NCBI RefSeq assembly: GCF_000260965.1 | Contig: NC_017856.1 | Location: forward strand, 2,310,001 to 2,342,000 | Source: Methylophaga frappieri | GTDB lineage: Bacteria > Pseudomonadota > Gammaproteobacteria > Nitrosococcales > Methylophagaceae | DNA length: 32,000 nucleotides | Direction of reading: 5' to 3' | In this document: positions 1 through 26,446 of the stretch, one piece after another | Layout: the number at the start of each line of letters is the position of its first letter | Numbering within the stretch: the first letter of the stretch is position 1 | Position numbers and translations under genes: made by a program | The notes under the pieces: generated by a model | Database searches by the model: none | Seen by the model: the letters and a program-made list of their open reading frames with translations, nothing else | What the model was told of the DNA's origin: nothing

Positions 1-3000
1 CCGCCACCGCCACCGCCTTGGATGGCACGATTCGTAATCTGCAAGTTGGCGATAAAATTTATCAACATGAACTCATTACCACAGGCGCAGCCGGGGCGAT
101 TGAAATAGCCTTCCTGGATGGTAGTCAGCTGGATATGGGACGCAGCTCACAAATGCTGTTGGATCTGGATGTATTTAATCCGGATGCACCAGTGACAGAA
201 ACAGCCGAGACGGTTATTGATGACGATGTGGCGGCGATTCAACAAGCGTTGTTGGATGGCGAAGACCCATCACTTTTGGCTGAAGCAACTGCCGCGGGTG
301 CGGGTACCGGTGTTGATGGCTCCGAGGGTAGCACTGTGCTGGTATTCCGGAATTACCTGAATCCGGAAGTGACGCCAACCAATGGCTTTGAAACGATCGG
401 TGTATTTAACGAATTTGATGCACCACCAGAAGACATTAATCTGCTGGAAGATGATGTTACGCCAGAACCAACCCCTGAACCGACGCCAGAACCAACTCCT
501 GAGCCAACGCCAGAACCAACTCCTGAGCCAACTCCTGAGCCAACTCCTGAGCCAACTCCTGAGCCAACTCCTGAGCCAACGCCAGAACCAACTCCTGAAC
601 CGACGCCAGAACCAACTCCTGAGCCGACGCCAGAACCAACTCCTGAGCCGACGCCAGAACCAACCCCTGAGCCGACGCCAGAACCGACTCCTGAGCCAGA
701 ATTTGATCCACCAGCGGGTCAACCAGTCAGATTAGAAGTTCAGGAAGACGAAATTACCGATACCGCAACCACCACGGTTACCTTTACACCGGGTGATGGT
801 GCGCTGGATGGTTTTGGTATGACTTTAAGCCCTGCCACGACAGTGAATGTCGATGGATTACCTGGTCCTGAATTGGATTGGAGAATTGAAAGCGGTCAGA
901 TCATCGGCGCATTGGATGGCACGGATGTCATCGTTGTCAGCCTGAGCAACCCGAACTTTGGTGCGGGTACCGTTGATGTCAATGTCCAACTGCTTGGCCC
1001 ATTGCCACACCCTGATCCCGATAATACGGATGGTTTGAGTGACTCAGTGATCACTATCACCGGCATTGGTGTCTTTACCAGTGATACCAATGGTTTGTTA
1101 GGCCATGCTCAAGTCACAGTTGATGTGATTGATGATGTACCTTCTGTTGCCGAACAGGTTGAACCTGTACGTGCGATGGTTGAAGAAGATGGTATGTCTT
1201 TGGCGACTGGCGATAATAGCGAAGGTAATAAAGCAGCAAGTGGTGATAGCAATAGCGATGATGAAGTAAGCGGTGTTGCCGGTACCCTGAGCGCTTTGTT
1301 TGACTCTGGGGCGGATGCACCACTGACTATCAGTTTGTCTGATGACACCAGTGCGCTGCCAACGCTTTATTCCAATGGCACAGCAATTACTTACAGCGTC
1401 AGCCCTGATGGCACGACGCTGACTGCAATGGCTGGTCCGGTTACCGTGTTCACGTTAACGGTGAATGCAGACGGCTCCTATGAGTTCGATCTGCAAGCGC
1501 AATTAGATCACGTTGATGATGGCAATAATGACGAAAATATAGCGCTGCAAACCAGTGCACCGGGTGTTGAGCCAGTGACTTCGGTGAATGGCATTGACTT
1601 CAGTAGTGTTTTGACCGCGACGGATGCCGATGGCGACAGCGTCACCGGTGCCGGTAGTCAATTGTTTGTGATTGCCGTTGAAGATGATGTTCCGGTTGTC
1701 ACAGTTCAAGGGGTTAATTTCTTCAGTGAATCATTTGAAGGCTTTTCAACCCAAGGCAGTGGTTTTGATGTTGTTGGTTTAGGTGGCGGCAACGTCTCTG
1801 GTGATGCCGGCCATATCTGGACCGTCAACGAAGCAGGTATTGAAATTCAGTTTGGCAACACCGGTGGTGCTTCACCATCAGATGGTAATGTTCATGCAGA
1901 ACTGGATGCAGATCCTAATGGCAATAGCCTGGTGCAAATTTCCACCGAAGTCATGTTGCCGACCAGCGATATTACGCTGAGCTTTGATTACCAGCCACGT
2001 CCGAGCAGCCAAGATGATAGCGATATGCTGGTGTCTTTGGGTGGTGTTGAAGTGACGATCCTGTCTGATAGCGCAGGTAATGTCAGCTTTGCCGGTCTGC
2101 CAGCTGGCGTTGAAGGTAGTTTGACATCGGTCAGTGGCGGTTGGACCAATGTGGTTCTGAAATTTACCGGTATGGATACCAGCAGCCCACAAACTTTGCT
2201 GTTTGAAGGTCTGGGTAATGCGGATACGTTAGGGGCTTATCTGGATAACATCAATCTGTACGGCAACAGCCTTTTGGTTGTTGACGAGTCCGGCTTGCCT
2301 GGTGGTAATCCAGAATCAGGTGATGTGGTTAGTGCCTCTGCAACGCTGGATCTGAGTGGTTATTTCCTGGGTAGCGTAGGTGCCGATATTGAGGGTACCG
2401 AAGAATTCAGCTTGACTTTGGCAGAGAGTGAGGAGCCGATCGGCAGTGGTTTGTTTGCCGTCGATAGCAATGACACGCAATTTGCAGGCGATGATGGTGA
2501 TGGCTATGGCCAGGGTGAGGAAATCGAGCTGGTACAAGTTGATAGCACCACCATTGCCGGTATGCTGGATGGCAATACCTACTTTACTATCAGCGTTGAT
2601 CCTGCAACCGGTGTTGTGACACTGACCCAAGAAGATAACGTTTGGCATCCAAATGTGAATGATGCCGATGAAGCCGTCTCATTGATTTTAGATGCGGGCA
2701 CGATTGAAATTAATTACAGCCTGACTGATGCGGATGGTGATACGGCAACAGGCAGTCTGGATTTGAGCCAAGGCGTATTTGGCTTTGAAGATGATGCACC
2801 GGTTGCAAACCTGGATCCAGAAGCTGCCGTGATAGCGACGGTCGAAGAAGATGGCATGTCGTTGGCAACATCGGATAACAGTGAAGGTAACAAAGCGACG
2901 GTTGATGATAGTAACGATGACGATGAAGTGACTGGTGAGGCGGGCGCGCTGACAGCGTTGTTCAGCGCCGGTGCCGATGCGCCGGTGACCATTAGTCTTT

Positions 3001-6000
3001 CTGATGATGTCAGTGGTTTGCCAAGCTTGTATTCAAACGGGAATGCGGTGAGCTACAGTGTGGTCGGTAATGTGCTGACTGCGACAGCTGACGGTGTGGA
3101 TGTATTCACATTGACCGTGAATGCCGATGGTTCTTATGCGTTCGATCTACTTGATCAACTAGATCATGTCGATGATGATACAAACACTGAAAATTTCGCA
3201 TTAGTCACGGATGACGGTTCAGTCAACGGCATTGATTTCAGCAGCATTCTGGTGGCGACCGATAGTGACGGTGATGCTGTCACCGGTGCTGGTGAAGGCC
3301 AGTTTGTCATTAATGTGCAGGATGATATTCCGGTTGTTGAAGCGACAACGGATTTGGCTGTTAACTTCTTCAGCGAATCATTTGAAGGCTTTGCGCCAAA
3401 CCTGAGTGGTAATGGCTTTACCGTTGTTGGCGTTGGTGGCGGTACGGTGTCTGGGGATGCCGGCATTGTCTGGAACGTCAATGGCGCGGGTCTTGAAATT
3501 CAATCCGGTAATGCGGGTGATGCCTCCGCCTCTGATGGCGATGTGCATGCCGAGCTGGATACGGATAATAACGAGACATTGCTGACCCAGCTTTCTACGG
3601 ATGTCGAACTGCCAAGTGCCGATGTCATTCTGAGCTTTGATTATCAGCCGCGGCCAAATCATGAAGATGACAGTGATATGTCTGTCAGCTTTGGTGAATA
3701 CAGCTTCAACGTGAATTCAGATGCCGGTGGCAATGTCACCGTTGAGGGTCTGCCTGTCGGTGTAACGGCAGAATTGACTGAAGTGGCTGGTGGCTGGACC
3801 ACTATCACACTGACATTCACCGGTATGGACACCACTTCACCGCAAACATTGACCTTTGAAGGGTTAGGAGACGCCAACGAATTTGGGGCTTACCTCGACA
3901 ATATCAATATGTTTGCATTGCCAGTTCTGGCGGTCGACGAATCAGGTCTGGAGAACGGTAATCCTGAAACGGGTGCGGTTAGCTCTGCCACGGCCAGCTT
4001 TGATTTCAGTGGCTACTTCACCAGTAGCGTGGGTGCCGACGAAGACGGCACGACAGCTTACAGCCTGTCACTGAGTGGTGAAAATATTGTAACTGGTCTG
4101 TATGCCGTTGATACCACAGATACGTCTACTGCTGACACCGATGGTTACGGTCAGGGTGCAGAAATTGTCCTGAATGAAGTCGGTGGTGCCATTGTCGGCT
4201 CTGCTGATGGTGTTGATTACTTCACCATCAGCGTGGATAGCAACGGTGTTGTAACACTGGAGCTGCTGCAAAACATCTGGCATGACGACACCACCGATAG
4301 CGACGAAGCGATGAGCATGTTGCTGGAAGCGGGAACCTTGCTGTTGAGTAAATCGGTGACTGATGCGGATGGCGATACCGTCAGTGCGGATCTGGATTTG
4401 AGCGGTATTGCTTATCGGATTGAAGATGACGCACCGATTGTTAATGAACAAGCCGAAGCGGTTACGGCGAGTGTTGAAGAAGATGGTATGTCGTTCTTAA
4501 CGCTTGATAACAGCGAAGGCAATAAAGAGGCTGGTGATACCAACGATGATGACGAAGTCAGCGGTTTAACTGGCTCACTGTCCGCGTTGTTCAGCGCCGG
4601 TGCCGATGCGCCGGTGACTATCAGTCTTTCTGATGATGTCAGTGGTCTGCCAAGCCTGTATTCAAATGGTAATGCGGTCAGCTACAGCGTCAGCGGTAAT
4701 GTGCTGACTGCGTCTGCTGGCGGTCTGACCGTATTTACCCTCACGGTCAATGCAGATGGTTCGTATGTATTCGATCTACAGGATCAGCTGGATCATGTTG
4801 ACGATGATACAAACACTGAAAACGTCGAGTTAGTCACGGATGGTGGTTCAGTCAGCGGCATTGATTTCAGCAGTATTCTGGTTGCGACCGATAGTGACGG
4901 TGATACTGTTACCGGTGCTGGTGAAGGTCAGTTTGCGATTGAAATTCAGGATGATATTCCTGTCATGACCAATAATGGTGTCATTACCATTAAACACGAC
5001 GAGTCAGGTGAGGCTCAAAATGAAGACCCACAATTCACTTTAAGCGGTGCGAATATCACGGCAAGTGATCTCATCTCACTGTTGGGCCTGGATTTACCGT
5101 CGCTGGGATTGTTTGACCTGGATCCAAATGGCGATGGCGTTGAGATTGCTACTGAGCTGCTGGGGGATGGCAATCTCTTCGGCCTCAGTGTGCAAACCAA
5201 CACCAGTGCGGTGCAATACAGCGGTGGGGCCGATGGCATTAATCTCGTTAGTCTGACCGATGCTGAGGGCAATGTTTTTGATGGGACAGATACTGGCTTG
5301 CAAACCAGCAATGGCGATCAACCAATCTATCTTTATACTCTGGATGCCAGCATATTTTCTACCTTGCAGGGCATCCTCAGTGGGTTTGGCATCAATATCA
5401 GCAACAGCGAATTTGGCCAGGTTGGTGCCAAGGTCGTCGTGGGTCTGACCAATGATGGCGGTCTGGATCAATACGGTTCGATTGCCGATATGTTGCAAGA
5501 CGCGGCATTTGTGTTGGGATTGAAACCGGGTGATAACGGCGACGGTAGTGACGATGCCTTGTTACTGCTTCAGTTGAAAGCGATTGAGCATGCGGATACG
5601 GAAAGTAATAGTGAACAAGCCGTTCTTGACCTGATTCACTTCTCTGTCACCGATAATGATGGCGATACAGTCACCTCTGACAGCGGTATCCAAGTTGTCT
5701 TTGAAGATGATGGTCCGTCTATCGAAGTTGGAAAAGTTGACCAAGCAGGCAAACAGCTGGAAGTCACACTGGATGAAACCGTCGGTGATGATCGCGCTGC
5801 CGCTGGTGAGGTTGTCAATGGCAATACTGACGATGCCACTGGGGTACTTGCCCAAGTGAACACACAGGTTGTTGGTGGTCTGACAGCGCTGTTCACCATC
5901 AGTGGTGCGGCAGGTGCAGATACGCCGGTTGTTGATACAGGTGTCCTGTCACTGGAATTGTCTGATGAAGGATTGGCAACAAACCTGAGTGCGACAGATG

Positions 6001-9000
6001 GCGGTGCCATTTCGCTGTTCACCAATGGCGGCAACATCGAAGGCCGTGACACTGACGGCGACGTCGTGTTCTCAATCTCGATTGTTGACATCGCTGGTGT
6101 GCCTCAGTTGCAAACGACATTGTTTGAAGCCATTGCACATGGCGATACCAGTACCTTCGATGAAGCATTAGGATTACTGACTGAAAGCGGTAACTTGAAG
6201 CTGAGATATGAGGTTACACGGACCGATGCGGATGGCGATACCGATACCGCTGCGGCCAATATTGTGCTGGCGAACCAGAATCGTTCAAGAATTACCTTTG
6301 AAGATGATGGCCCAAGCATGACTGTTGAGCAGCCAGAGCAACCGTTGTTGTTGACCGTGACCAATGAGGGTGGTAGCGCAGGGTATAACAATACCTTTGG
6401 TTACTACATCATGAATGGTGATGGTGAGCCAGTGAGCGGTCAAATCATCTGGGCGAATGTGCAAGGTAATCTCTCTGATGAAATCACTATCAATGCCGAT
6501 CCGGCAACGGTTGGCTACTTCATTATTCCTGATGGCAATGATTTAAATAGTGGTCTGGCCAATGGCGCAGAGGTCACGTTTGCCAAGGATGGGGAGGGTA
6601 ACTGGCAGGTATTACTGGACGGTACTCCTCTGTCTGGTGAGTTAACGAATGTCCGGTTTGATAATCCGGCATTGAATGAAGATGGTGCGACTGCGGTGCA
6701 AGATAACGCTGAGCCGGGCAATCTTAATTGGGAAGACAAACATTCTGGTAGCGATAATGACTTTAACGATATCAATATCAATGTTGTGGTCACCCCGCTT
6801 GGATTATTAACCGTTGATGAAACGGATATTGGCTCGCCAGATGCGGCGCAAGTGCTTGACTTGTCAGGTAGCTTTGCATTCGACTTTGGTTCAGATGGTG
6901 AAGGCAGCGTCGCCTACGACTTGGAAGTAGGTTCAGCGTCTACCGGTGTGTTTGATACAGAAACCGGTTTAGAGGTTGCGCTGCGTAGCGGCGTTGGTGG
7001 CATTATCGAAGGCTTTGTTAACGATGGTAGTGGCGATCAAATCGTGTTCACTGTCAGCGTTGATGGCGATGGGGAAGTTACCCTGACGCAATTGCGCGCT
7101 GTGATTCACGATGATCCGACGGATGCGGATGAAGCAACCTCACCAGTGGTAATTAACTCGGGGGCGCTCTATCTGAATGCCACCGTGACTGACGGTGATG
7201 GCGATATGCTTTCTGACGGTATTGACCTTGGCAGCTTGCTGGCCTTTGAAGATGATGGCCCAGTTGCCGTTGATGATGTGGATACTGTTGTTGATGGCGT
7301 CGCTACCGGTAATGTGGTGACTGCGGTTGATACCACGACTGATCCCGCTGGTGTCGATGACTTCGGTAGTGATGGTGCGGGTCGTGTTACCTCAGTCAGC
7401 TTTGGCGATACGGTGGTATTGATTCCAGAAGATGGCTCAGCCGAAGTTGAAGGTGAATTCGGTACTCTGACCCTGAACGCAGATGGCAGCTACAGCTACG
7501 AGGTTGATCCGAGCAAATTGCCAGAAAATACCGAAACCGTTGAAGGCTGGACGAACACAGGCAGCAATATGACGGCCTTTGAACTGGACGAGTCGTTCCT
7601 GACTGCAGATGGTAAATTCAGTGATACCGGCACGGGTGCGATCACGACAGGCGGTAACGCGCCAGGCTTTGGCGTTGGCGGCACTTCTGGACAAAATACT
7701 TCTGTCCCAGATCAAATTAATTACTCTGACAGTCTGAGTGAAGCACTGGCATTCAAATTTGATGGTCCAGTACTCTCAGCGTCGGTGCAGTTCTCTAATC
7801 TGTTCCAAAATGAAAATGGTGGTGAGGCGATGCGTTGGCATGCCTTCGATGCCGATGGTAACCGGATTGGCAGTGGTATTGTCAGCAACAATGATGATGC
7901 CAATGATCCGTATGCTTCATCCACGCCATTTGCTATGGATGATAATAACGTTGGGTCATTTACTATCGGTAATATCGGTGCCTTTAACACGCTGGTATTC
8001 GAGTCAGTACCGTACAGTGATGATGGCAACGCTGCTGCCGATAACTCGGACTACTTCGTCAATATTAGTGAATACGAAAGTTTTGCTCTTGGCGATAATA
8101 GCTATCAGGATCAGTTTGGTTACAGCATCGTGGATGCTGATGGCGACAGTGCCGCTGCAACGTTGACCATTAACGGTGAGGCCGGTGTACCGCAAGGTGA
8201 GCTGACGCCGTTTTCGCCAGTAGCAGCTGATAACACCTATCAAGTTGATGGTGTTACAACTGGCAATATCATCACCGATGATGACAATAATGGTGGTGCG
8301 CAAACCGGTCGTGATTATGACAACGACACACCAGTCCTGAACCTGTCTATTCACTCCGTTATTTTTGATGATGGGGATGACAATACGGATGACGTCACGC
8401 TGATTGAGGCGGATGGCACGGTCATTGAGTTGAACAACGGGACATTAGTTATCAATCTGGATGGCAGCTATAGCTACACGCCAAACCAAGGTGCTAATGA
8501 GGGTGATGTGTTTGATTACACCTTGATCGATCCAGATGGTGAAATCAGTGCCCCAGCCACCGTCACGTTGCTTGCTGAGAATGATGAGCCAACAGGTGGT
8601 GAAGCCAATGCCGTTGTTGATGATGAAGGCTTGGTGCCTGATGGTATTGAGGGTGGTCTTGGTGATGAGGTGATGTTACCGGATGCGGATAGTAACGAAG
8701 CAACCTTCATCGGTACATTAGGCTTTGATTACGGTGACGACACACCGGGCACGATCGACTTTGCGGCGATGCATGAACAAACCGCTACAATCGGACAGGA
8801 AACAGTCGAGTTTGCTTGGGATGCCAACAGTGCAACTCTGACGGCAGCGGGTCCAAGAGGCAACTTGTTTACGGTTGAAATTACCGACCAAACAACCGGT
8901 GCTTATCAGGTGACACTGCTTGATAATGTCATGCATGACACGCTGGATGGTCTGCAAGGCGACGATACCGAAAACAACCATCAAGTGGCACTGACTTATA

Positions 9001-12000
9001 CCGTTAATGACAGTAATGGTGATGATGTCACGGGTACGCTGACCATCGATTTTGATGATGATATGCCAGCGGCACAATCGGATTCAGAAAGCATCACGGT
9101 ATCAGTAAGCGATATTAGTGTCGGTAATCTGACTTCTGCCTTTAGCAACATTGATGGTGGTAATGACACGGCACTGGTCGATGGTACCGGTGGCGCACTT
9201 GATGAAGTGAGCTGGGGCAATCCAAATGGCTCTAATTATCAGTTTGATGATAATGATGCCTTGATTACCAACAGTCCGATTGTTGTTAATGATGATTTTG
9301 CTTTGGGAGCGTTCACCCACAATAACTTCGTCATTGATGTCAGTGATTCAATTGATAGCGTTGATTTGGATGTGCAATTTACGGTTGAAATTGATGGTTT
9401 CGATGTGGTGGTGAATCACACGATTACCTTCAACCACGATGAAACGCCGAATGATAGTGATGACCCACGCGATACCATCAGCATTGATGGCAGTTCGGCA
9501 ACGCAAACTATCTCGGTTGGTGGTAAAACCTATGAGTTGCAGATTCTGGGCTTCTCAAGTGGTGGCGTGCCGGTAACGGAAGTTATCACGGAGGAAAACG
9601 CGTCAACCAGCTTTGATTTGATTGCCAAAATCGTGTCCACTGATGACCTGCCTGTTGTGACAGGGTCGGTAACGGGTGAATTCGGTGCCGATGGGCCGGC
9701 AGAACAAGGCAGCCTGATTTGGGAAGGCGAAGTGCAAGGTGAGATCCAAGGTGACTTTGGTACGCTGGAAGTCGAAAGTGATGGCAGCTACACCTATACC
9801 TTGAGTCGTGAGGCTCGGGATAGCCAGCAAGTTGATACGCCACGCGTAGAAACCTTCACTTACATCACCATGGATGATGATGGTGATCAAGTGTCTAACA
9901 CGTTGACTATCAATATCGATGGCGAGCAAGCTGAGACGGTGCCTGATGATGAGCCAACTGCGGGCGACAGCACCGCCACTGTGGATGATGAAGGTCTGCC
10001 AGGTGGTATTGAAGGTGGTCCGGGTGATGAGGTTATGTCGAATGCAGATCTGGATGATAACGAGTCCACTTTTGCAGGCACCTTGAATCTGACGCCAAGT
10101 GTGGATACACCAAACAGCATCAGCTTTGCGGATATGAATGATCAGCTAGTCAATTTAGGCCAGGAAACGGTTCTGCTGTCTTGGAGTGGGGCAAATAAAA
10201 CGCTGACAGCGACCAGTACGACTCAAGGTCGTGGCGAGATCTTCAAAGTCACGCTGGATGCATCTAACAATGGTGACTACACCGTCACCTTGTTGCAAAA
10301 CGTGTTGCATCCTGATGATGGTCAGAATGATGAAAACAACGTCGAAATTGATCTGACCTATGCCATTGTCGATAACGATGGTGACGATGCGACGGGCACA
10401 TTAACCATCAACTTTGATGATGATGTACCGACCGCGTCTTCAGATTACGATTCAGAAGACGATGCGTTTGTTGTTGACATCAGTGAAGGCAATCAAGCGA
10501 CAATTGACGTCGATATTGACTTTGGTGCCGATGGCGAAGCTGAAGAAAATGCGGTGACCTTCACGCAACCAACAACAGGTTCAGTGACTTACGAAGACGG
10601 TGAGTTTACTTATACCTACGATGGTGAAAGTGAGAGTGGTGCAGACAGCTTTACCTTTAGCGTGACTGATGCCGATGGCGATACCATCACTGAAACGGTC
10701 TATTTGGACGTGCAGGTGCCGGTGCCGGATGTGTTGTATGTTGGCACTAATAGCGACAACACCAAAACCACACCAGCCGGTAATGATGTGCTGATTGGTG
10801 ATTTGGGTGGTCGTGACCAGCAGTACACGCCAGGTATGGATTACAGTATTGCCCTGATTGCAGATGAGTCAGGCAGTATGGAAGGTAGTCGTAATACCTT
10901 GCTTAAAAATGCGCTTGAAAGCTTTGTCAATGATTTAGCTACTCATGATGGGGAGATTAATATTGCCCTGATTGGTTTTGCAGAGTCAGCGTCCTTGAAA
11001 ATTTCAGTCAGTGATTTATCCAACAATCCGAGCGGATTGAGTTCATTATTGACTGCGATTGATAATCTGGATGCAGATGATGGCACAAACTATGAAGCGG
11101 CATTCGATTCTGCTGTGAGCTGGTTTAACGGGCAGCCGGGTGATCATGAGTTCATTACTTACTTTATGACAGATGGTAATCCGACATTTAGTAATAATGG
11201 TGATAATGGTGAAGGCGACGAGACCGAGTACCGCGATTTGTTGGATGCTGTCGAGGCCTTTGCCGGACTGAGTGCCGTCAGTGAGGTCAATGCGATTGGT
11301 ATCGGTAATGGTATCAACAGTGACTATCTGCGTTTCTTCGATAACACCAGCACCACGGGTAATGCAACGGAGAACTTTGGCAGCACGACCAATACAGTGG
11401 TGTTAGCAGACTTTTCAGGCAGTAATCATCCATTGGATACAACTGGTGATTGGACTGAGTCTGGCGACTCAGACGGTAGCATTGGTCGTAATGATGGCGT
11501 ATTTCGCATTACAGATCGACGCAATGATGGTTCAATCGTTGTGACTAGCCAAGCTTTTGCTGTTGCGGTTGAAGATACGATACTGCGATTTGACTATGGA
11601 ACAACGAGTCTTGAAAGTTTTGATGGTGACCAAATTAGCTGGTCTCTACAACGCCAAAACGGAGCTAATTGGGACACAGTATCAGGTAGTGGTTTATCTC
11701 AAAGCTCAGGTAGTCGTGTAGAGTCTTCCGAACTTGACGTTGGTAATTACCGCTTGGTTTATGAGGTTCAGGCAGGATGGTGGGAAAATAATGAAACCTT
11801 GTATCTCGATAATATCGAACTAAGAGAACCGGTATCTCTCGATGTTTCAGGCCCGGTCGGCGAAGTCAAAATCATCAATTCAGCAGCAGAATTAACGGCT
11901 GAGCTGGAAAGTGGTTCCTCTACGGATGAGTTACTGTTGATGGGCGATGACATCCTCACCGGTAGTGATGGCAATGACATTATCTTTGGTGACACCTTGT

Positions 12001-12509
12001 ACACCGGTAATATGGGTGCAATCAGTGGTGAAGATTACCAGGGTGTGATTGATTATCTGACTGCGCAAAATAGTGGTACCGCGCCGACAGATGAACAAAT
12101 CATGCAGTTTGTCCGTGATAACTATCAAGATTTGTACAACGAGGCACCATCGGCTGAAGAAATCGCTGCGGCCGGTGAAAACATTCTTGAAGGTCGTGGT
12201 GGTGATGACATCCTGATTGGTGGAGCGGCGGAAGATACCTATGTATTCAGCATGGATGAAGACACGGGTGATGACACTATTGTTAACTTCCAGCCGGGTA
12301 CGGATGTGTTGAACTTCAAAGACGTTATCGCGGACGATGATGTTAATGATGTCATCACAGGCGCTGCCAATAATGGTGATGATGTGACGTTGACACTGAA
12401 AAATGGTGGCAGTATTACCTTGCAAGGACTGGGTGATGGCACAACCAATAATGTCGCTGACCTGGAAACGTTGCTGGGTGGTGCTAACATCACGATAGAC
12501 CACAGCTAA
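1..12509 (+). CDS. Giant LapA/RTX-type T1SS-secreted surface adhesin, 5'-partial (true start upstream of window)
   Basis: A single open frame of 4163 codons runs from the track start at 18. That 'start' is an internal TTG, and the frame stays open back to nt 3 (codons A-T-A-T-A). N-terminal sequence IRNLQVGDKIY..GAIEIAFLDGSQLDMGRSSQMLLDLD resembles the periplasmic retention module of LapA-like adhesins. The body is built from repeated acidic D/T/G/V-rich modules (..VEEDGMS..NSEGNK.., ..VDESGL.., ..GTLTLNADGSYSY.. VCBS-like). The C-terminus has vWA, RTX GGxGxD repeats and a T1SS target domain. No Cys codon was seen in the whole frame. Confidence 0.9.
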   Translation, partial: ATATALDGTIRNLQVGDKIYQHELITTGAAGAIEIAFLDGSQLDMGRSSQMLLDLDVFNPDAPVTETAETVIDDDVAAIQQALLDGEDPSLLAEATAAGAGTGVDGSEGSTVLVFRNYLNPEVTPTNGFETIGVFNEFDAPPEDINLLEDDVTPEPTPEPTPEPTPEPTPEPTPEPTPEPTPEPTPEPTPEPTPEPTPEPTPEPTPEPTPEPTPEPTPEPTPEPTPEPTPEPEFDPPAGQPVRLEVQEDEITDTATTTVTFTPGDGALDGFGMTLSPATTVNVDGLPGPELDWRIESGQIIGALDGTDVIVVSLSNPNFGAGTVDVNVQLLGPLPHPDPDNTDGLSDSVITITGIGVFTSDTNGLLGHAQVTVDVIDDVPSVAEQVEPVRAMVEEDGMSLATGDNSEGNKAASGDSNSDDEVSGVAGTLSALFDSGADAPLTISLSDDTSALPTLYSNGTAITYSVSPDGTTLTAMAGPVTVFTLTVNADGSYEFDLQAQLDHVDDGNNDENIALQTSAPGVEPVTSVNGIDFSSVLTATDADGDSVTGAGSQLFVIAVEDDVPVVTVQGVNFFSESFEGFSTQGSGFDVVGLGGGNVSGDAGHIWTVNEAGIEIQFGNTGGASPSDGNVHAELDADPNGNSLVQISTEVMLPTSDITLSFDYQPRPSSQDDSDMLVSLGGVEVTILSDSAGNVSFAGLPAGVEGSLTSVSGGWTNVVLKFTGMDTSSPQTLLFEGLGNADTLGAYLDNINLYGNSLLVVDESGLPGGNPESGDVVSASATLDLSGYFLGSVGADIEGTEEFSLTLAESEEPIGSGLFAVDSNDTQFAGDDGDGYGQGEEIELVQVDSTTIAGMLDGNTYFTISVDPATGVVTLTQEDNVWHPNVNDADEAVSLILDAGTIEINYSLTDADGDTATGSLDLSQGVFGFEDDAPVANLDPEAAVIATVEEDGMSLATSDNSEGNKATVDDSNDDDEVTGEAGALTALFSAGADAPVTISLSDDVSGLPSLYSNGNAVSYSVVGNVLTATADGVDVFTLTVNADGSYAFDLLDQLDHVDDDTNTENFALVTDDGSVNGIDFSSILVATDSDGDAVTGAGEGQFVINVQDDIPVVEATTDLAVNFFSESFEGFAPNLSGNGFTVVGVGGGTVSGDAGIVWNVNGAGLEIQSGNAGDASASDGDVHAELDTDNNETLLTQLSTDVELPSADVILSFDYQPRPNHEDDSDMSVSFGEYSFNVNSDAGGNVTVEGLPVGVTAELTEVAGGWTTITLTFTGMDTTSPQTLTFEGLGDANEFGAYLDNINMFALPVLAVDESGLENGNPETGAVSSATASFDFSGYFTSSVGADEDGTTAYSLSLSGENIVTGLYAVDTTDTSTADTDGYGQGAEIVLNEVGGAIVGSADGVDYFTISVDSNGVVTLELLQNIWHDDTTDSDEAMSMLLEAGTLLLSKSVTDADGDTVSADLDLSGIAYRIEDDAPIVNEQAEAVTASVEEDGMSFLTLDNSEGNKEAGDTNDDDEVSGLTGSLSALFSAGADAPVTISLSDDVSGLPSLYSNGNAVSYSVSGNVLTASAGGLTVFTLTVNADGSYVFDLQDQLDHVDDDTNTENVELVTDGGSVSGIDFSSILVATDSDGDTVTGAGEGQFAIEIQDDIPVMTNNGVITIKHDESGEAQNEDPQFTLSGANITASDLISLLGLDLPSLGLFDLDPNGDGVEIATELLGDGNLFGLSVQTNTSAVQYSGGADGINLVSLTDAEGNVFDGTDTGLQTSNGDQPIYLYTLDASIFSTLQGILSGFGINISNSEFGQVGAKVVVGLTNDGGLDQYGSIADMLQDAAFVLGLKPGDNGDGSDDALLLLQLKAIEHADTESNSEQAVLDLIHFSVTDNDGDTVTSDSGIQVVFEDDGPSIEVGKVDQAGKQLEVTLDETVGDDRAAAGEVVNGNTDDATGVLAQVNTQVVGGLTALFTISGAAGADTPVVDTGVLSLELSDEGLATNLSATDGGAISLFTNGGNIEGRDTDGDVVFSISIVDIAGVPQLQTTLFEAIAHGDTSTFDEALGLLTESGNLKLRYEVTRTDADGDTDTAAANIVLANQNRSRITFEDDGPSMTVEQPEQPLLLTVTNEGGSAGYNNTFGYYIMNGDGEPVSGQIIWANVQGNLSDEITINADPATVGYFIIPDGNDLNSGLANGAEVTFAKDGEGNWQVLLDGTPLSGELTNVRFDNPALNEDGATAVQDNAEPGNLNWEDKHSGSDNDFNDININVVVTPLGLLTVDETDIGSPDAAQVLDLSGSFAFDFGSDGEGSVAYDLEVGSASTGVFDTETGLEVALRSGVGGIIEGFVNDGSGDQIVFTVSVDGDGEVTLTQLRAVIHDDPTDADEATSPVVINSGALYLNATVTDGDGDMLSDGIDLGSLLAFEDDGPVAVDDVDTVVDGVATGNVVTAVDTTTDPAGVDDFGSDGAGRVTSVSFGDTVVLIPEDGSAEVEGEFGTLTLNADGSYSYEVDPSKLPENTETVEGWTNTGSNMTAFELDESFLTADGKFSDTGTGAITTGGNAPGFGVGGTSGQNTSVPDQINYSDSLSEALAFKFDGPVLSASVQFSNLFQNENGGEAMRWHAFDADGNRIGSGIVSNNDDANDPYASSTPFAMDDNNVGSFTIGNIGAFNTLVFESVPYSDDGNAAADNSDYFVNISEYESFALGDNSYQDQFGYSIVDADGDSAAATLTINGEAGVPQGELTPFSPVAADNTYQVDGVTTGNIITDDDNNGGAQTGRDYDNDTPVLNLSIHSVIFDDGDDNTDDVTLIEADGTVIELNNGTLVINLDGSYSYTPNQGANEGDVFDYTLIDPDGEISAPATVTLLAENDEPTGGEANAVVDDEGLVPDGIEGGLGDEVMLPDADSNEATFIGTLGFDYGDDTPGTIDFAAMHEQTATIGQETVEFAWDANSATLTAAGPRGNLFTVEITDQTTGAYQVTLLDNVMHDTLDGLQGDDTENNHQVALTYTVNDSNGDDVTGTLTIDFDDDMPAAQSDSESITVSVSDISVGNLTSAFSNIDGGNDTALVDGTGGALDEVSWGNPNGSNYQFDDNDALITNSPIVVNDDFALGAFTHNNFVIDVSDSIDSVDLDVQFTVEIDGFDVVVNHTITFNHDETPNDSDDPRDTISIDGSSATQTISVGGKTYELQILGFSSGGVPVTEVITEENASTSFDLIAKIVSTDDLPVVTGSVTGEFGADGPAEQGSLIWEGEVQGEIQGDFGTLEVESDGSYTYTLSREARDSQQVDTPRVETFTYITMDDDGDQVSNTLTINIDGEQAETVPDDEPTAGDSTATVDDEGLPGGIEGGPGDEVMSNADLDDNESTFAGTLNLTPSVDTPNSISFADMNDQLVNLGQETVLLSWSGANKTLTATSTTQGRGEIFKVTLDASNNGDYTVTLLQNVLHPDDGQNDENNVEIDLTYAIVDNDGDDATGTLTINFDDDVPTASSDYDSEDDAFVVDISEGNQATIDVDIDFGADGEAEENAVTFTQPTTGSVTYEDGEFTYTYDGESESGADSFTFSVTDADGDTITETVYLDVQVPVPDVLYVGTNSDNTKTTPAGNDVLIGDLGGRDQQYTPGMDYSIALIADESGSMEGSRNTLLKNALESFVNDLATHDGEINIALIGFAESASLKISVSDLSNNPSGLSSLLTAIDNLDADDGTNYEAAFDSAVSWFNGQPGDHEFITYFMTDGNPTFSNNGDNGEGDETEYRDLLDAVEAFAGLSAVSEVNAIGIGNGINSDYLRFFDNTSTTGNATENFGSTTNTVVLADFSGSNHPLDTTGDWTESGDSDGSIGRNDGVFRITDRRNDGSIVVTSQAFAVAVEDTILRFDYGTTSLESFDGDQISWSLQRQNGANWDTVSGSGLSQSSGSRVESSELDVGNYRLVYEVQAGWWENNETLYLDNIELREPVSLDVSGPVGEVKIINSAAELTAELESGSSTDELLLMGDDILTGSDGNDIIFGDTLYTGNMGAISGEDYQGVIDYLTAQNSGTAPTDEQIMQFVRDNYQDLYNEAPSAEEIAAAGENILEGRGGDDILIGGAAEDTYVFSMDEDTGDDTIVNFQPGTDVLNFKDVIADDDVNDVITGAANNGDDVTLTLKNGGSITLQGLGDGTTNNVADLETLLGGANITIDHS
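288..299 (+). other. Putative LapG-type periplasmic protease cleavage motif (T-A-A-G) after the retention module
   Basis: ACT GCC GCG GGT encodes TAAG in the context DPSLLAEA-TAAG-AGTGVDGSEGSTVLVFRNY. This matches the di-alanine (T/A/P)AA(G/V) site described for LapA-family adhesins, and it sits at the expected place just after the retention module. Confidence 0.55.
459..698 (+). repeat. In-frame tandem repeat, 20 x 12 nt, encoding (TPEP)20
   Basis: Counted directly: 20 contiguous 12-nt units, all translating to T-P-E-P. Two synonymous codon flavours alternate (ACGCCAGAACCA and ACTCCTGAGCCA/G), with five identical ACTCCTGAGCCA units in a row at units 6-10. Confidence 0.97.
1130..4965 (+). 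repeat. Three tandem ~1.65-kb coding super-repeats of the adhesin (third copy truncated)
   Basis: Copies start near 1130 (DDVPSVAEQVEPVRAMVEEDGMS), 2790 (EDDAPVANLDPEAAVIATVEEDGMS) and 4425 (EDDAPIVNEQAEAVTASVEEDGMS). Copies 2 and 3 are about 90 percent identical at DNA level over stretches such as 2957-3060 versus 4584-4690. Each full copy is a T1SS-143-like module, then a jelly-roll-like module (1713..2264 and 3360..3924: NFFSESFEGF...HAELD...LSFDYQPRP...GGWT...GAYLDNIN), then a second VDESGL-type module. Confidence 0.85.
6381..6795 (+). other. DUF4114-like module inside the adhesin
   Basis: GYNNTFGYYIMNGDGEP...VGYFIIPDGN...NLNWEDKHSGSDNDFNDININV matches the remembered DUF4114 signature (GyF...fEDl..gGD.DFNDlv). 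The assignment rests on motif recall only. Confidence 0.45.
10839..11345 (+). other. von Willebrand factor A (vWA) domain of the adhesin with intact MIDAS motif
   Basis: DYSIALIADESGSMEG...INIALIGFAESA...DDGTNYEAAF...FITYFMTDGNPT...VNAIGIGNG. The DxSxS motif D-E-S-G-S is encoded at 10863..10877, followed by the downstream T and D MIDAS positions. Confidence 0.8.
11373..11831 (+). other. C-terminal jelly-roll/CBM-like module of the adhesin
   Basis: NFGSTTNTVVLADFSG...GDWTESGDSDGSIGRNDGVFRITD...ILRFDYGT...GNYRLVYEVQAGWWENNETLYLDNIELREP has the same overall pattern as the modules in the super-repeats, including the ending ..YLDNI.. Confidence 0.45.
11943..12506 (+). other. RTX-type Ca-binding repeats plus type I secretion C-terminal target domain
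   Basis: GDDILTGSDGNDIIFGD is at 11943..11993 and GRGGDDILIGGAAEDTYVF at 12192..12248. The tail is ..DTIVNFQPGTDVLNFKDVI...VTLTLKNGGSITLQGLG...LETLLGGANITIDHS*, which resembles the VC_A0849-subclass T1SS target domain. Confidence 0.8.
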
Positions 12510-12530
12510 TCTGAGTCTGACCCTTCACAA

Positions 12531-12558
12531 GCCCGCGAGCAATCGCGGGCTTTTTTTT
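12531..12558 (+). terminator. Rho-independent terminator after the adhesin gene
   Basis: GCCCGCGA (12531-12538), GCAA loop, TCGCGGGC (12543-12550): a perfect 8-bp GC-rich stem followed by T8 (12551-12558), 22 nt after the TAA stop. Confidence 0.9.
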
Positions 12559-12594: not shown

Positions 12595-13491
12595 ATGAAC
12601 GAAAAAATTTTTGTCTCGATTGCCAGTTATCGTGATCCGGAGTTGGCAGCCACGGTAACGGATTTGTTTGCCAAAGCCGCGTACCCAAAGCGGTTGCATG
12701 TGCAAATCTTGAATCAAATCGAACCTGAAGACACAGATTGTCGGATATCAGCGAATCCCCAAGTGCAGGTGGATCAAGTGGCTGCCAGCGACAGTTTGGG
12801 GGTGTGTTGGGCACGGCATCATATTCAACAAAAATTACCTGCCGATGCCGCCTATTATTTGCAAATTGACAGCCACATGCGGTTTGCAGCCGATTGGGAT
12901 GTGCAAATGATAGCCATGCTGCCGGCGTGTGCGTCGCAAAGGCCGATCTTGTCTTGCTATCCGGTTGCTTACACGCCCCCGGATCAGTTAGGCAAACCGA
13001 TGATTACCCGATTAAAACCGAAAAAATTTAACCATCACGGTATTGTGACGCTGGACTCGGAAACCACGCCTTATAGACAGCGTCCGGCTTTGCCAGCCTT
13101 ATCAGCGTTGGTGGCGGGTGGTTTTATTTTTGCACCAGCGCAAGCGTTTCGCGAGGTGATCTACGATCCGTATTTATACTTTATTGGTGAAGAGATAACC
13201 TTGTCTGCACGTCTGTGGACGCAGGGCTGGGATAGCTTCGCGCCAAATGAGGTGCTTATTTATCATAATTATCAGCCTGAGCAACGGCCACGACATTGGG
13301 ATGATAATCAGCGCTGGTCAGCCTTAAATCAGCGAAGTATTCAGCGGGTGCATTATTTACTTTCTGCTATGCCACCGACGGATCCTGCTGCACTGATCGA
13401 AATCGCGCATTACGGACTAGGTCAACGCCGAACATTAGAAAATTACCAACGGCTTATTAATGTGCGTTTTGCGGATGGCATTGCCGTTTAA
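12595..13491 (+). CDS. Cytoplasmic GT-A glycosyltransferase, PF11397 'GlcNAc' / CAZy GT60-like (Skp1-HyPro / polypeptide alpha-GlcNAc-transferase family)
   Basis: 298 aa with no signal peptide or TM segment. Motif blocks are MNEKIFVSIASYRDPEL, YLQIDSHMRFAADWD (DxH/DxD-like) and GGFIFAP..DPYLYFIGEEITLSARLWTQGWDSFAPNEVLIYHNY. As far as I recall these are the conserved blocks of the Gnt1-type GlcNAc-transferase family. No obvious Shine-Dalgarno sequence precedes the ATG. Confidence 0.6.
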   Translation: MNEKIFVSIASYRDPELAATVTDLFAKAAYPKRLHVQILNQIEPEDTDCRISANPQVQVDQVAASDSLGVCWARHHIQQKLPADAAYYLQIDSHMRFAADWDVQMIAMLPACASQRPILSCYPVAYTPPDQLGKPMITRLKPKKFNHHGIVTLDSETTPYRQRPALPALSALVAGGFIFAPAQAFREVIYDPYLYFIGEEITLSARLWTQGWDSFAPNEVLIYHNYQPEQRPRHWDDNQRWSALNQRSIQRVHYLLSAMPPTDPAALIEIAHYGLGQRRTLENYQRLINVRFADGIAV

Positions 13492-13553: not shown

Positions 13554-14747
13554 ATGGCAAGACTTCGCTTTCCACATGTTTATGGCACGAATAGTCATGA
13601 TGAGTTTATTACTGGTGACAATCAGATAACTTTTGGTTATGCCGGTAATGACAGCTTCACGTCATACTCTTATACAGATTATAACTTTATGGTTGGTGGC
13701 AAAGGGGATGACCACTATTAAGCGAGCTTTAACTCAGCCATCACCATTTTAGATACCGGCGGGCGTGATACTTTATATGCGTTTGGTATTGCGGTAACTG
13801 ATCCAGATGTTTATGTCGCCACTATTAATGGCGGTCAACATGTGTTGGTAAAAAATATTCGTAATGGCGATCAGGTCGCTATAGTAAATTGGCGCGATCC
13901 GGATTATCGAATTGAAACGATTGTTTTGGCTGATGGCACATTTAGCTACAACCAGATAGTTTCTATCATCTACGATAGCCCAAACTTTCTCGGTGATTAT
14001 ACGGTTGCCGAGACGGCCTATTATGGATTTTTACCACTTGGGACGAGTGGTAATGATTTAGCGGAATTTATTAATCACGCTTTATACTTTGAATCTTTGG
14101 GGCCGCCATTACCAGAAAGCCCGATTCCGGTTCTCGATACAGTTGACCAAGATGCTGCACTGCGCATTATGGAAACCTATATCGCTTATTTCAATCGCGC
14201 TCCTGAGCATAGCGGCTTGAATTATTGGTTGGAAACGTATCAGCAACAAACGGCAAGCGGCGTTTCTGCTGACGCGGCTATATCTGAAATCAGTAATGCG
14301 TTTTACGATACGTCGGTCGCTTATTTTTCAGATGTTAGTGGTTTTACCGCAGACATGCCAGACATTGACTTTGTTGCGACAATTTATGCCAATGTATTGG
14401 GGCGGCCAGATGCGAGACAAAATGATCCCGAGGGTATCAATTACTGGCTAACGCAGTTTGATCCTGACAACCGTGCTGCGCTGGTAACAGATATTATCGA
14501 TACAGCAAAGGCTGTCATCGCCAATGCGCCTAACGATCCGGTTTCTATTTATGTTGATAATTATTTGAACAATCGTTTAATCGTCTCAACATATTTTGCT
14601 GAGCAAGGTGTTTCTGAAAAATTAACCGGGGATCAGGCTATTCAGGCAGGAATTGAAGCGTTGGTAAATATTACGGATGACTTTAGCAGTGTCGAAGCAA
14701 CGATTGATTTTCTTCAACAGCAGTACGGTGACCCACTAATTATTTAA
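13554..14747 (+). pseudogene. RTX-repeat + tandem DUF4214 protein gene interrupted by a single in-frame TAA (13719..13721)
   Basis: A strong RBS AAGGAGG (13541-13547) lies 6 nt before ATG 13554. The frame reads MARLRFPHVYGTNSHDEFITGDNQITFGYAGNDSFTS...GGKGDDHY-TAA-ASFNSAITILDTGGRDTLYAF... and runs in the same frame into the tracked ORF 13842..14747, whose GTG 'start' has no RBS. The stop sits at the x position of a GGxGxDxYx repeat. Downstream are two DUF4214-type motifs (IAYFNRAPEHSGLNYWL and IYANVLGRPDARQNDPEGINYWL). Confidence 0.7.
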
Positions 14748-14790: not shown

Positions 14791-15216
14791 TCACCAGCAG
14801 TCAGCGGCTTCGACTCCGGGATCAGCGTTTTCGATCTCTTTTACACCAATGTGATTCAGGGTTAAGTCGCCACAACGATCTGCCGTTTGCGCACCTTGCG
14901 GAACGGCGGAAAGAGTAAAACTGGTTGCAGTGCTGGCATCAATCGCCAAGGTGTATTGCTCCAGATCATTCTGAATGGCAGCAGGAATATCAGTGTCCGC
15001 ATCCGGATAGGTGTAGTTTTCGGTATAAAACCGTTCCATGTAGTTGGCCAGTTCAACCAATGCTGCCTGTGCAGTAGCACGGCGGGTTTCGCGGACATTT
15101 TCGATATAGGAGGGGTAGGCGATTCCGGCAAGAATACCGATAATCACGACGACGATCATCAATTCAATCAACGAAAAACCACCCGAATGTCGCTGTGTTT
15201 TGACCTTATTCCTCAT
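14791..15216 (-). CDS. pilE: Type IV pilin-like minor pilin PilE
   Basis: MRNKVKTQRHSGG/FSLIELMIVVVIIGILAGIAYPSY is a prepilin leader plus class III signal with Glu5. The C-terminus has a Cys...Cys loop (DRCGD...AADCW). Start set at ATG 15216, because the longer track ORF (to 15321) would give a 46-aa leader and overlap the upstream gene. Confidence 0.85.
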   Translation of the reverse strand: MRNKVKTQRHSGGFSLIELMIVVVIIGILAGIAYPSYIENVRETRRATAQAALVELANYMERFYTENYTYPDADTDIPAAIQNDLEQYTLAIDASTATSFTLSAVPQGAQTADRCGDLTLNHIGVKEIENADPGVEAADCW

Positions 15217-15508
15217 TGGGCAACATCCATAAATCAGTAATGACCAATTGTCCGTTATCATCCAGCCCGGTATTGATACCAACCCGCATGCCAGGTTGCA
15301 GTTGCGGCCCTTTTTCGCCAATCGGAAAGAGGGTATGGGTTTTCACGGCAGGGCTAAGTTGATATTCAATAAAATCAATATGAACACTTGGCGCTTCTTG
15401 TTCAGTATCAACCTGATTCACGGTACCTGCGATACGGTAATCTGCAGCCCATGCCGACCATGACAGGCCAAGCAGTAGCAATCCAATGCCTTGATGTAAT
15501 CGTTTCAT
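15206..15508 (-). CDS. Small secreted protein in the PilY2 position of the minor-pilin operon
   Basis: MKRLHQGIGLLLLGLSWSAWA/ADYRI.. is a Sec signal peptide. A GAGG RBS lies between the pilY1 stop (15520) and ATG 15508. The gene is 100 aa and its 3' end overlaps the pilE start by 11 nt. The PilY2 label is positional only. Confidence 0.55.
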   Translation of the reverse strand: MKRLHQGIGLLLLGLSWSAWAADYRIAGTVNQVDTEQEAPSVHIDFIEYQLSPAVKTHTLFPIGEKGPQLQPGMRVGINTGLDDNGQLVITDLWMLPNEE

Positions 15509-15519
15509 AAGCGCCTCGC

Positions 15520-19122: not shown

Positions 19123-19124
19123 GG

Positions 19125-19676
19125 TTAGTACCTCTTGGCAACAGTGCTCTGTAATAGCACCCGGGATTGGTTAGAACCGCCGGTGGCTCGCGCTGTAATA
19201 CGATAAAAAGAGCGTCCCGTATCCCGGTTACCATCTTGGATGACCTGATCATCAGGTATTTCAACCAAATATTCGATAATGGTCATAGGGCGTGTGGTCA
19301 CATTCGTGATATCGGCGCCGTACTGAACCCCATTATCTTGCCACCAGACAGTGCCGCGGGTTGGTTCCTGCCACCACGGCAAATTATTATTCCAGTTGGC
19401 ATCTAGATCACCTTGTTCGGAATTCCAGATGCGATTATTACCATCTTCAGTCGGCAATGGGTCATTAGTCTGCGCATCCAGCCAGGCTTCGGCATCACGC
19501 AAGGCCGTTTCGGCAGCTTGAAAGGCGAGCGCCATATCGCGAGAATTACCGGCCATTTTTTCTTCGAGCAGACTGGTACGCATTGCCGCTAAGCCAATAA
19601 TGACCAAAATCACCAGAATAATCAGGCTGATAATCAGCGCTGCCCCCGATTGTGCCTGTTTTGCTGAACGCATCAT
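19125..19676 (-). CDS. pilX: Minor pilin PilX
   Basis: MMRSAKQAQSG/AALIISLIILVILVIIGLAAMRTSLLEEKMAGNSRD is a PilX-type N-terminus lacking Glu5. The ATGA start/stop overlaps pilW, and the stop lies 2 nt before the pilY1 ATG. Confidence 0.8.
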   Translation of the reverse strand: MMRSAKQAQSGAALIISLIILVILVIIGLAAMRTSLLEEKMAGNSRDMALAFQAAETALRDAEAWLDAQTNDPLPTEDGNNRIWNSEQGDLDANWNNNLPWWQEPTRGTVWWQDNGVQYGADITNVTTRPMTIIEYLVEIPDDQVIQDGNRDTGRSFYRITARATGGSNQSRVLLQSTVAKRY

Positions 19677-22413: not shown

Positions 22414-22415
22414 TT

Positions 22416-22829: not shown

Positions 22830-22843
22830 CAGGAGACTGGCCG

Positions 22844-23527: not shown

Positions 23528-23539
23528 GGAGTATCGGCA

Positions 23540-24835: not shown

Positions 24836-24860
24836 CGGTTAGTGGGGAGCAATACAGTCT

Positions 24861-25604: not shown

Positions 25605-25644
25605 TCCATTTATTTAGCGCTATTTATATTTCAGGAGTCACACC

Positions 25645-26430: not shown

Positions 26431-26446
26431 TTGAAGTTGTACTCCA

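Follow-up and report, generated by a model that had tools for sequence, protein, structure and literature searches.

Several bacterial adhesins, among them TibA (modified by TibC), AIDA-I (by Aah) and the serine-rich-repeat adhesins (by GtfA-GtfB), are glycosylated in the cytoplasm by a glycosyltransferase (GT) that is encoded beside the adhesin. Similarly, HMW1C modifies the HMW1 adhesin in the cytoplasm before export (PMC4550697). The enzymes of these systems are GT41 members that N-glycosylate Asn, heptosyltransferases or GT4/GT8 proteins, their substrates are exported by type V or accessory Sec pathways, and none of the systems comprises a LapA-type adhesin of a type I secretion system (T1SS) or an enzyme of family GT60. 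Here we analyse a stretch of 32,000 nucleotides from Methylophaga frappieri (contig NC_017856.1, positions 2,310,001 to 2,342,000 of the forward strand; the whole stretch is called the window), in which the gene of a giant LapA-type adhesin with a (TPEP)20 tract is followed by the gene of a PF11397/GT60 GT. The logic is that of the known pairs, with a GT gene beside an adhesin gene and modification that would take place in the cytoplasm before export, but the enzyme family (GT60), the expected modification (mucin-type O-linked N-acetylhexosamine, HexNAc, on Thr/Pro repeats) and the export route (LapA-type, T1SS) make the locus a candidate for a new form of adhesin glycosylation. On balance we lean slightly towards a GT that is dedicated to the adjacent adhesin and glycosylates the Thr residues of its TPEP tract in the cytoplasm before T1SS export; a functional tie of the GT to one or more T1SS adhesins, which is the weaker claim, we consider quite probable.

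LapA-type adhesins govern biofilm attachment in many proteobacteria, and the current Lap model contains no glycosylation step. A preliminary description of the locus, drawn up from the DNA sequence, knew of no glycosylation in a LapA/RTX-type adhesin system, and the literature that we searched on Lap likewise describes neither a glycosyltransferase nor glycosylation. The RTX proteins SwmA and oscillin of cyanobacteria "appear to be glycosylated" according to a review that names no enzyme or site (PMC3034196). They provide a precedent for T1SS-type RTX glycoproteins, but are S-layer or fibril proteins with no known link to GT60.

The protist members of GT60 include cytoplasmic Gnt1 of Dictyostelium and the polypeptide alpha-GlcNAc-transferases (pp-alphaGlcNAcTs) of Trypanosoma cruzi and Dictyostelium, which are Golgi enzymes. 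The family is confined to prokaryotes and protists and groups together with GT27, DxH replacing DxD in both (PMC7185993). The pp-alphaGlcNAcTs initiate mucin-type O-glycans in protists, with Thr in Thr/Pro-rich mucin-like repeats as acceptor, and do without the lectin domain of GT27 (PMC8724618). For bacterial PF11397/GT60 members, no function is described in the literature searched. The GT of the window belongs to the same Pfam family as the protist enzymes and shares with them the GT-A fold, the DxH motif and the absence of a C-terminal lectin domain, but it is bacterial, soluble and genomically coupled to substrates of T1SS or two-partner secretion (TPS), and no counterpart was found to the prior prolyl hydroxylation that Gnt1 requires. 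A further difference from the protist enzymes is that most bacterial homologues carry a C-terminal S-adenosylmethionine (SAM)-dependent methyltransferase or are multi-GT fusions. GT27 enzymes such as human GalNAc-T2 resemble the window GT in fold and DxH motif, whereas the latter has no ricin-type lectin domain and no membrane anchor and is predicted to work in the cytoplasm rather than in the Golgi lumen.

A GT60-type enzyme encoded beside a LapA-type adhesin

The adhesin gene, the GT gene and the elements within and between them are located as follows.

18..12509, + strand: giant LapA-type retention-module T1SS adhesin, the presumed substrate (NCBIfam, Pfam and degenerate RTX-like motifs)
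21..395, + strand: retention module (periplasmic plug), NF033682 match over residues 2-126
288-299, + strand: LapG-type TAAG site inside the retention module (residue index 95 of the open reading frame, ORF)
459..698, + strand: perfect (TPEP)x20 tract immediately following the retention module (Tandem Repeats Finder, period 24 x 10)
12529..12552, + strand: intrinsic-terminator-like hairpin between adhesin and GT (10-bp stem with 7 GC pairs, loop of 4, then TTTTTT)
12595..13491, + strand: 298-aa GT-A glycosyltransferase of PF11397/GT60, GT-only form without a methyltransferase domain
12868..12876, + strand: D92-S93-H94, by alignment the DxH metal/UDP-sugar-binding motif typical of GT27 and GT60

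The GT ORF begins with ATG and encodes 298 residues that contain IFVSIASYRDPEL, QIDSHMRFAADWD, FIGEEITLSARLWTQGWDSF and YHNY. All of this, including the lack of a signal peptide or transmembrane segment, agrees with the preliminary description, and its assignment of such strings to PF11397/GT60 was borne out by the match to Pfam PF11397 "GlcNAc", which scores 256.2 bits (cut-off 21; E=8e-76) in two stretches that together span most of the protein. An NCBI entry of M. frappieri named "Glycosyltransferase (GlcNAc)" has the identical sequence (100%), and the closest database relatives of the protein are 57% identical. Because the first beta-strand of the fold opens the protein (from residue 5) and the hydropathy maximum (Kyte-Doolittle, 19 residues) is only 1.58 and falls on a core strand, we find neither a signal peptide nor a membrane segment, and the enzyme is thus predicted to be cytoplasmic. 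An alignment of 23 unfused homologues (45-57% identical) revealed 46 invariant columns, among them IAxYRD, Q-x-D-S-H-x-R-F (with D92, S93 and H94), G-E-E, W..GW and the C-terminal His H234; a second C-terminal His, H224 of YHNY, is conserved in at least 90% of these homologues.

The AlphaFold2 model (pLDDT 95.9, pTM 0.93) adopts a Rossmann-like GT-A fold, and the 37 best Foldseek matches in the PDB are all GT27 polypeptide GalNAc-transferases (ppGalNAc-Ts; E 2e-12 to 1e-9, query TM 0.58-0.67), including human T1, T2, T4, T7, T10 and T12, Toxoplasma T3 and Drosophila PGANT9. Sequence identity to these enzymes is 13-21%; a sequence search of the PDB returned nothing at E<=1, and only the fold search was informative. 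Judged by sequence and model, the GT shows every sequence and structural hallmark of the GT60 family and is predicted to be a metal-dependent GT-A enzyme with intact catalytic motifs. By analogy with the characterised family members, which are retaining polypeptide alpha-GlcNAc-transferases, its donor would be UDP-GlcNAc, used in a retaining alpha-GlcNAc transfer.

PF11397/GT60 is a large family (7013 clusters at 50% identity with E<=1e-3, 2470 with E<=1e-30), and most of the 120 best matches to the window GT are fusions of ~515 aa, with the GT at the N-terminus and a SAM-methyltransferase at the C-terminus. Where the GT is unfused, a separate PF10119 (MethyTransf_Reg) gene of ~511 aa can lie between adhesin and GT (L005:8458-9993, L019 and L021); in M. 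frappieri, no methyltransferase is fused to the GT or encoded next to it. The fused domain or the separate PF10119 protein could serve sugar or protein methylation. Other PF11397 proteins are multi-domain enzymes (L062:6422-11545, L077:3863-7246, L038:174-2516 and P0136-P0145), with architectures such as HtrL_YibB followed by GT60-MT-GT60-MT (MT, methyltransferase; 1708 aa), several PF11397 domains with GT2, or GT60 with TPR and a GT9 heptosyltransferase-like domain; the largest representatives reach 2461 aa with four GT60 domains. Such architectures suggest the assembly of more than one sugar.

The adhesin and its TPEP tract

The adhesin gene lies upstream of the GT gene on the same strand and carries a perfect (TPEP)20 tract, as the preliminary description had it, and its stop codon (12509) is separated by 85 nt from the ATG of the GT (12595). 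Two reservations made there, a terminator between the genes and the absence of a prolyl hydroxylase from the window, also held. The ORF comprises at least 4163 aa within the window, and comparison with homologues, which bear the name "retention module-containing protein", places its first ~15-20 codons before the window start. Its N-terminus matches NF033682 retention_LapA (NCBIfam) with 82.5 bits (cut-off 50) and holds the LapG-type TAAG site within EATAAGAG. NCBIfam further detects six TIGR03660 T1SS-143 repeats and the BapA/LapF C-terminal family, and Pfam detects six DUF5801 domains, Cadherin_5, Big_9 and VWA. The C-terminus shows degenerate RTX-like motifs of the GxGxD type; Pfam HemolysinCabind has no match in the window adhesin, but is matched in homologous adhesins. 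Judged by these domains, the upstream gene encodes a bona fide LapA-type T1SS adhesin. With the LapA/LapD/LapG/LapEBC system of Pseudomonas fluorescens it shares the retention module, the TAAG site, the T1SS repeats and the VWA/RTX-like C-terminus.

The TPEP tract is by far the most Thr/Pro-rich segment of this adhesin, and each of its Thr residues has Pro at -3, -1, +1 and +3. At the DNA level it consists of ten 24-nt units in which all departures from the consensus (16/16) are synonymous third-position changes, indicating that the peptide itself is maintained and not merely the DNA. In GT-linked adhesins of other taxa, Thr/Pro repeats occupy the same position. The 24-nt unit alternates two codon sets (ACG CCA GAA CCA and ACT CCT GAG CCG), which may limit slippage while the peptide repeat stays perfect.

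Thr/Pro repeats beside the GT in other genomes

A scan with one genome per species found 396 relatives, and we analysed the GT neighbourhoods of the best 80 loci, predicting ORFs from stop to stop in six frames and by homology searches. An ORF of at least 200 aa was scored as Thr/Pro-rich if a 40-aa window reached T>=0.2, P>=0.125 and T+P>=0.45 with few R, C or W. A Thr/Pro-rich ORF was present within 2.5 kb of the GT at 33 of the 80 loci, compared to ~1.6 expected at the distal rate, since further away such ORFs occurred at 3/80 loci in roughly double the sequence. It typically ends 4-100 nt upstream of the GT on the same strand. Absence near contig ends is uninformative, because many contigs begin inside a repeat. 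In a rough neighbour-joining tree, loci with a Thr/Pro partner are spread over all major clades but two (Magnetococcales and Methylophaga).

The repeat units beside the GT are of at least 15 kinds, including those given here with the loci in which they occur.

(TPEP)20: the window
(TEPPA)n: L005, L019
(TEPPV)n: L018
(TTEPP)n: L014
(TATPEPTTTPAP)n: L010, L011, L016
(APTE)n: L032, L047
(TPAPTE/D)n: L027, L030, L033, L039, L048, L060
(TTEPA)n: L068, L072
(EPPVTT)n: L076
(TGAPTPTT)n: L078, L084
(EAPVTTT), ~110 copies: L079
(TPSPTHTNAPTK)n: L057
(APTTTA)n: L074

Averaged over 35 loci with equal weight for each, the frequency of Pro around Thr is 0.65 at +3, 0.55 at -3 and 0.36 at -1, and position +1 is taken by E, T or P. 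T-x-x-P is present in nearly every repeat unit, whatever its period, and TPEP conforms to it. Mucin-type ppGalNAc-Ts, the GT27 enzymes to which the window GT is similar in fold, classically prefer acceptors with Pro at +3, +1 and -1 (TxxP/TPxP), and the Pro at +3 of the partner repeats fits this preference.

Secretion genes beside the GT in other genomes

With strict thresholds, 42/80 loci contained T1SS genes for ATP-binding cassette (ABC), membrane fusion protein (MFP) or outer-membrane efflux protein (OEP) components, LapD/LapG, retention-module adhesins, TpsA or a mucin-like T1SS protein family, and 52/80 loci had secretion parts, a Thr/Pro ORF or both. Homologues never linked to TP-rich repeat proteins would have refuted the preliminary description; instead, bacterial homologues are strongly and recurrently linked to T1SS- or TPS-secreted proteins that carry Thr/Pro-rich repeats, across several orders and in unrelated architectures. 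Adjacency of the GT to an adhesin or other substrate was found in Methylophaga, Rhodocyclales, Burkholderiales, Nitrosomonadales and Rhodospirillales, and Lap parts or retention-module adhesins lie beside the GT in Rhodocyclaceae, Azonexus, Thauera, Azoarcus, Tepidimonas, Quisquiliibacterium, Comamonadaceae, Gallionella and Methylophaga. The annotated GT contexts showed no genes for polysaccharide synthesis.

The GT P0007 (52% identical) comes from Methylophaga metagenome contigs that are syntenic with the window and encode an adhesin, the GT, a second retention-module adhesin and pil genes. P0023 (51% identical, GT-only, from a Pseudomonadota metagenome-assembled genome) lies within a complete Lap locus, in the order AprE-type MFP, GerE regulator, 2401-aa DUF5801/VWA/RTX adhesin, PF10119 protein, GT, LapD, LapG and OEP-OmpA. 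In Azoarcus (L018) the order is OEP, LapG, LapD, a 693-aa protein with retention module and (TEPPV)16, the GT-methyltransferase fusion (GT-MT), MFP and ABC. Noviherbaspirillum (L060), Pseudoduganella (L048, L072, L088) and Novispirillum (L079) share a set of GerE-AAA16 regulator, double ABC, AprE-type MFP, TP-repeat protein and GT-MT, in which the TP-repeat protein contains hundreds of residues of TPAPTE, TTEPA or EAPVTTT and its gene is 3-70 nt away from that of the GT. In Magnetococcales (L065), GT-MT is located between the MFP and double-ABC genes of a T1SS operon.

Some GT60 loci are, like that of HMW1, two-partner-secretion loci: a TpsA protein (ESPR, TPS and YDG/MBG/GLUG domains) with a Thr-rich, Pro-containing C-terminal tail neighbours the GT in L062, L064, L069 and L087. 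These TpsA genes (L062:11710-16896, - strand; L087:3230-7846, - strand; L064 and L069) are arranged tail-to-tail with the GT60-containing genes, which parallels HMW1/HMW1C with a different GT family.

The mucin-like proteins (L048:5727-9929, L060:6917-9913, L072:4634-9982 and L079:4727-9007; also in L027, L030, L033, L039, L044, L051, L068 and L086) form a family with no Pfam or NCBIfam match. A conserved N-terminus (LFDDLTVLSRGQGLGD..APERVD..GNENVQ..GVPFVDQ) is followed by 400-1000 residues of TPAPTE, TTEPA or EAPVTTT repeats, sometimes with GNNGHGNGDQxAPGNSG units between them, and by a conserved C-terminus (LFxFGDV..W.DVIEMD..GG.WTEEIDGQ..DK..W); the L079 protein also has RTX repeats. Double-ABC and MFP genes always precede the gene, and GT-MT always follows it. 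A GT-only homologue of 347 aa (L170:9372-11044) has as neighbours a small protein with a Sec signal and (APPAPDEIA)-type repeats, and VgrG genes of a type VI secretion system (T6SS), a context that departs from the T1SS pattern.

A proposed route of modification

T1SS substrates leave the cytoplasm and reach the exterior in a single step, and the GT lacks a signal peptide; any modification would thus have to take place on the still unfolded chain within the cytoplasm, prior to or in the course of export. While the adhesin chain is still unfolded, the GT would transfer HexNAc (GlcNAc by family analogy) from a UDP-sugar onto the Thr residues of the TPEP tract, in T-x-x-P context. The modified adhesin would then leave C-terminus-first through the T1SS and be held at the cell surface by its N-terminal retention module. 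In this position the tract, just distal to the retention module and the LapG site, would lie in or near the outer-membrane channel and form the cell-proximal segment of the adhesin, where 20 HexNAc residues on an acidic polyproline-II rod may confer stiffness, hydration and protease resistance. The TPEP tract might accordingly serve as O-glycosylation acceptor, as rigid polyproline-II spacer, or as both.

Opposing evidence and alternative explanations

Several observations weigh against this proposal. A strong terminator-like hairpin parts the adhesin gene from the GT gene and no sigma-70-like promoter could be identified upstream of the latter; the hairpin suggests that the GT is expressed independently of the adhesin gene or at a lower level. 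LapD, LapG and the LapEBC genes (ABC, MFP and OEP) are absent from the 32-kb window, whereas homologous GT loci hold LapD, LapG and a TolC-like OEP. The M. frappieri GT lacks the methyltransferase domain carried by most homologues, and the proposal presumes that a glycosylated chain can pass through a T1SS. Where the contig extends 3 kb or more to each side of the GT, a Thr/Pro ORF lies within 2.5 kb at only 9/31 loci, and in Magnetococcales T1SS genes are present but a Thr/Pro ORF was flagged at only 2/19 loci, both times as a weak non-repeat match. Within the Methylophaga clade, M. frappieri is alone in having such an ORF. The GTs of sister Methylophaga are 46-52% identical to that of the window, yet the 4398-aa adhesin upstream of the sister GT has no Thr/Pro repeat in its first 3486 residues (L114, which carries its N-terminus), and neither the rest of it nor the downstream adhesin (L001, L092) has one save for the short PETDPPTDGIPTPDYP. 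Likewise, no Thr/Pro repeat occurs in the first ~600 residues of the downstream adhesin of L167, a GT-only locus with the order adhesin, GT, adhesin. L169 is syntenic with the window, and the N-terminus of its adhesin is beyond the contig. In the alignment, the TPEP tract of M. frappieri stands in place of an unrelated segment of the sister adhesin. As the tract is absent from orthologous adhesins, the GT-adhesin link in the Methylophaga lineage is independent of it, so that either the sister enzymes use other sites or the M. frappieri tract is a recent gain of extra sites.

The sister loci are therefore also the ground for an alternative in which the GT serves T1SS adhesins at sites other than TPEP, such as other Thr/Ser-rich segments or short linkers like PETDPPTDGIPTPDYP of the second adhesin in related species, and TPEP is a mere acidic polyproline-II spacer comparable to (EP)n rods: both they and L167 keep adhesin-GT(-adhesin) without a TP repeat. 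Linkers of this kind do exist without a GT. We scanned metagenomes with a retention-module alignment and obtained 78 adhesin loci (the module alone as protein query yielded only 15 short fragments, because contigs break at repeats), among which adhesins with the Thr-less Pro linkers (VEPP)n, in L089-91, and (EP)24, in L121, have no GT in their loci, indicating that the role of such linkers needs no glycosylation. It is, however, the Thr-less linkers that lack a GT, which agrees with a requirement for Thr, although two adhesin types only are involved. Across the family, moreover, Pro-rich repeats with Thr overwhelmingly predominate beside the GT and share Pro at +3 in unrelated units, and no other part of the window adhesin approaches TPEP in Thr and Pro content. 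Modification at other sites instead of TPEP hence appears unlikely to us, though it deserves serious weight.

Marine retention-module adhesins in L089-L091 (7012-8550), L121 (9950-15121), L157 and L109/L112 carry (VEPP)n, (EP)24, (APTD)n or (PTD)n linkers directly after the module; L157, with (APTD)n, reaches the contig edge.

We regard it as distinctly improbable that adjacency of GT and adhesin merely reflects lineage-specific synteny and that the GT acts on a type IV pilin, flagellar proteins, lipopolysaccharide (LPS) or exopolysaccharide, a glycolipid or a small molecule. The terminator between the two genes would fit such a reading, as would the conserved fimU-pilVWXY1E cluster and flg operon that also adjoin the GT in the window and in syntenic contigs, the 28/80 loci with neither secretion parts nor a TP ORF, and the T6SS neighbourhood of L170. 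However, pil and flg genes are found with the GT in Methylophaga-like contigs alone, and not in Rhodocyclales, Burkholderiales, Rhodospirillales or Magnetococcales, whereas T1SS/Lap/TPS genes and repeat proteins are the constant partners outside Methylophaga, and it is this difference that speaks against synteny as the explanation. In many of the loci with neither partner, a contig end lies within 2 kb of the GT. Pilin glycosylation, furthermore, is normally a periplasmic reaction carried out by oligosaccharyltransferases, and a signal peptide is absent from the GT. We rejected a link to pilin or flagellin glycosylation since the synteny is restricted to Methylophaga, and a role in polysaccharide or LPS synthesis since no such genes appear in the annotated GT contexts.

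Finally, a Skp1-like route, put forward in the preliminary description by analogy with Dictyostelium, in which a prolyl 4-hydroxylase (P4H) acts on the Pro of T-P-E and the GT then places GlcNAc on hydroxyproline as Gnt1 does on Skp1, can draw on the fact that Pfam and CAZy place the GT with Gnt1 in one family and on the T-P-E triplet of the Skp1 site, noted there, which TPEP includes, but is very improbable and was rejected, because neither the window nor any homologous context annotated with Pfam showed a 2-oxoglutarate-dependent oxygenase or P4H gene and because what the partner repeats have in common is Thr, with Pro at +3, -3 or -1, and not T-P-E (APTE, TEPPA, EAPVTTT, TGAPTPTT), the Thr-less Pro linkers again being those without a GT.

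Weighing these alternatives, we consider the M. frappieri locus a well-supported candidate for cytoplasmic adhesin glycosylation by a GT60 enzyme in conjunction with a T1SS.

Wider implications

More tentatively, and with a little less than an even chance in our estimate, bacterial GT60 enzymes may constitute a widespread proteobacterial pathway for the cytoplasmic mucin-type O-glycosylation of Thr/Pro repeats in type I- and two-partner-secreted proteins, a prokaryotic counterpart, and possibly ancestor, of eukaryotic GT60/GT27 glycosylation. As part of the same conjecture, its targets would include LapA-type adhesins and so far unannotated "bacterial mucins" in which TPAPTE- or EAPVTTT-type units recur hundreds of times, and T1SSs would be able to export densely O-glycosylated chains. 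Confirmation would add an enzyme family (GT60) and an export route (T1SS) to bacterial protein glycosylation, provide a large and so far uncharacterised family of bacterial GTs with its first function, and reveal bacterial mucin-like glycoproteins. It would also provide a soluble prokaryotic model enzyme of ~300 aa for mucin-type O-glycosylation, with a view to glyco-engineering of Thr/Pro repeats in E. coli, and would bear on the evolutionary origin of mucin-type glycosylation in eukaryotes.

Other features of the window

Downstream of the GT, the window contains the following.

13554-14747, + strand: RTX-like/HCBP/DUF4214 reading frame with one in-frame stop
14791-21755, - strand: complete type IV pilus minor-pilin cluster (ComP_DUS/PilE-like pilin, small ORF, PilY1, PilX, PilW, PilV, FimU/GspH)
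15206-15547, - strand: conserved 113-aa ORF within the pilin cluster
22012-31161, + strand: flgB-flgK, divergent from the pilin cluster

The frame at 13554-14747 encodes HCBP_related and DUF4214 domains as well as an N-terminus of RTX-like sequence (GYAGNDSF..GGKGDDHY), and is interrupted by a stop at 13719-13721; it may be a pseudogene, be read through or contain a sequencing error. It occupies the slot of the second retention-module adhesin in related Methylophaga, but the idea that it is a remnant of that adhesin was rejected, as the two show no similarity. The order of the pil cluster and flg genes beside the GT is also kept in the Methylophaga-like contigs L001 and L169.

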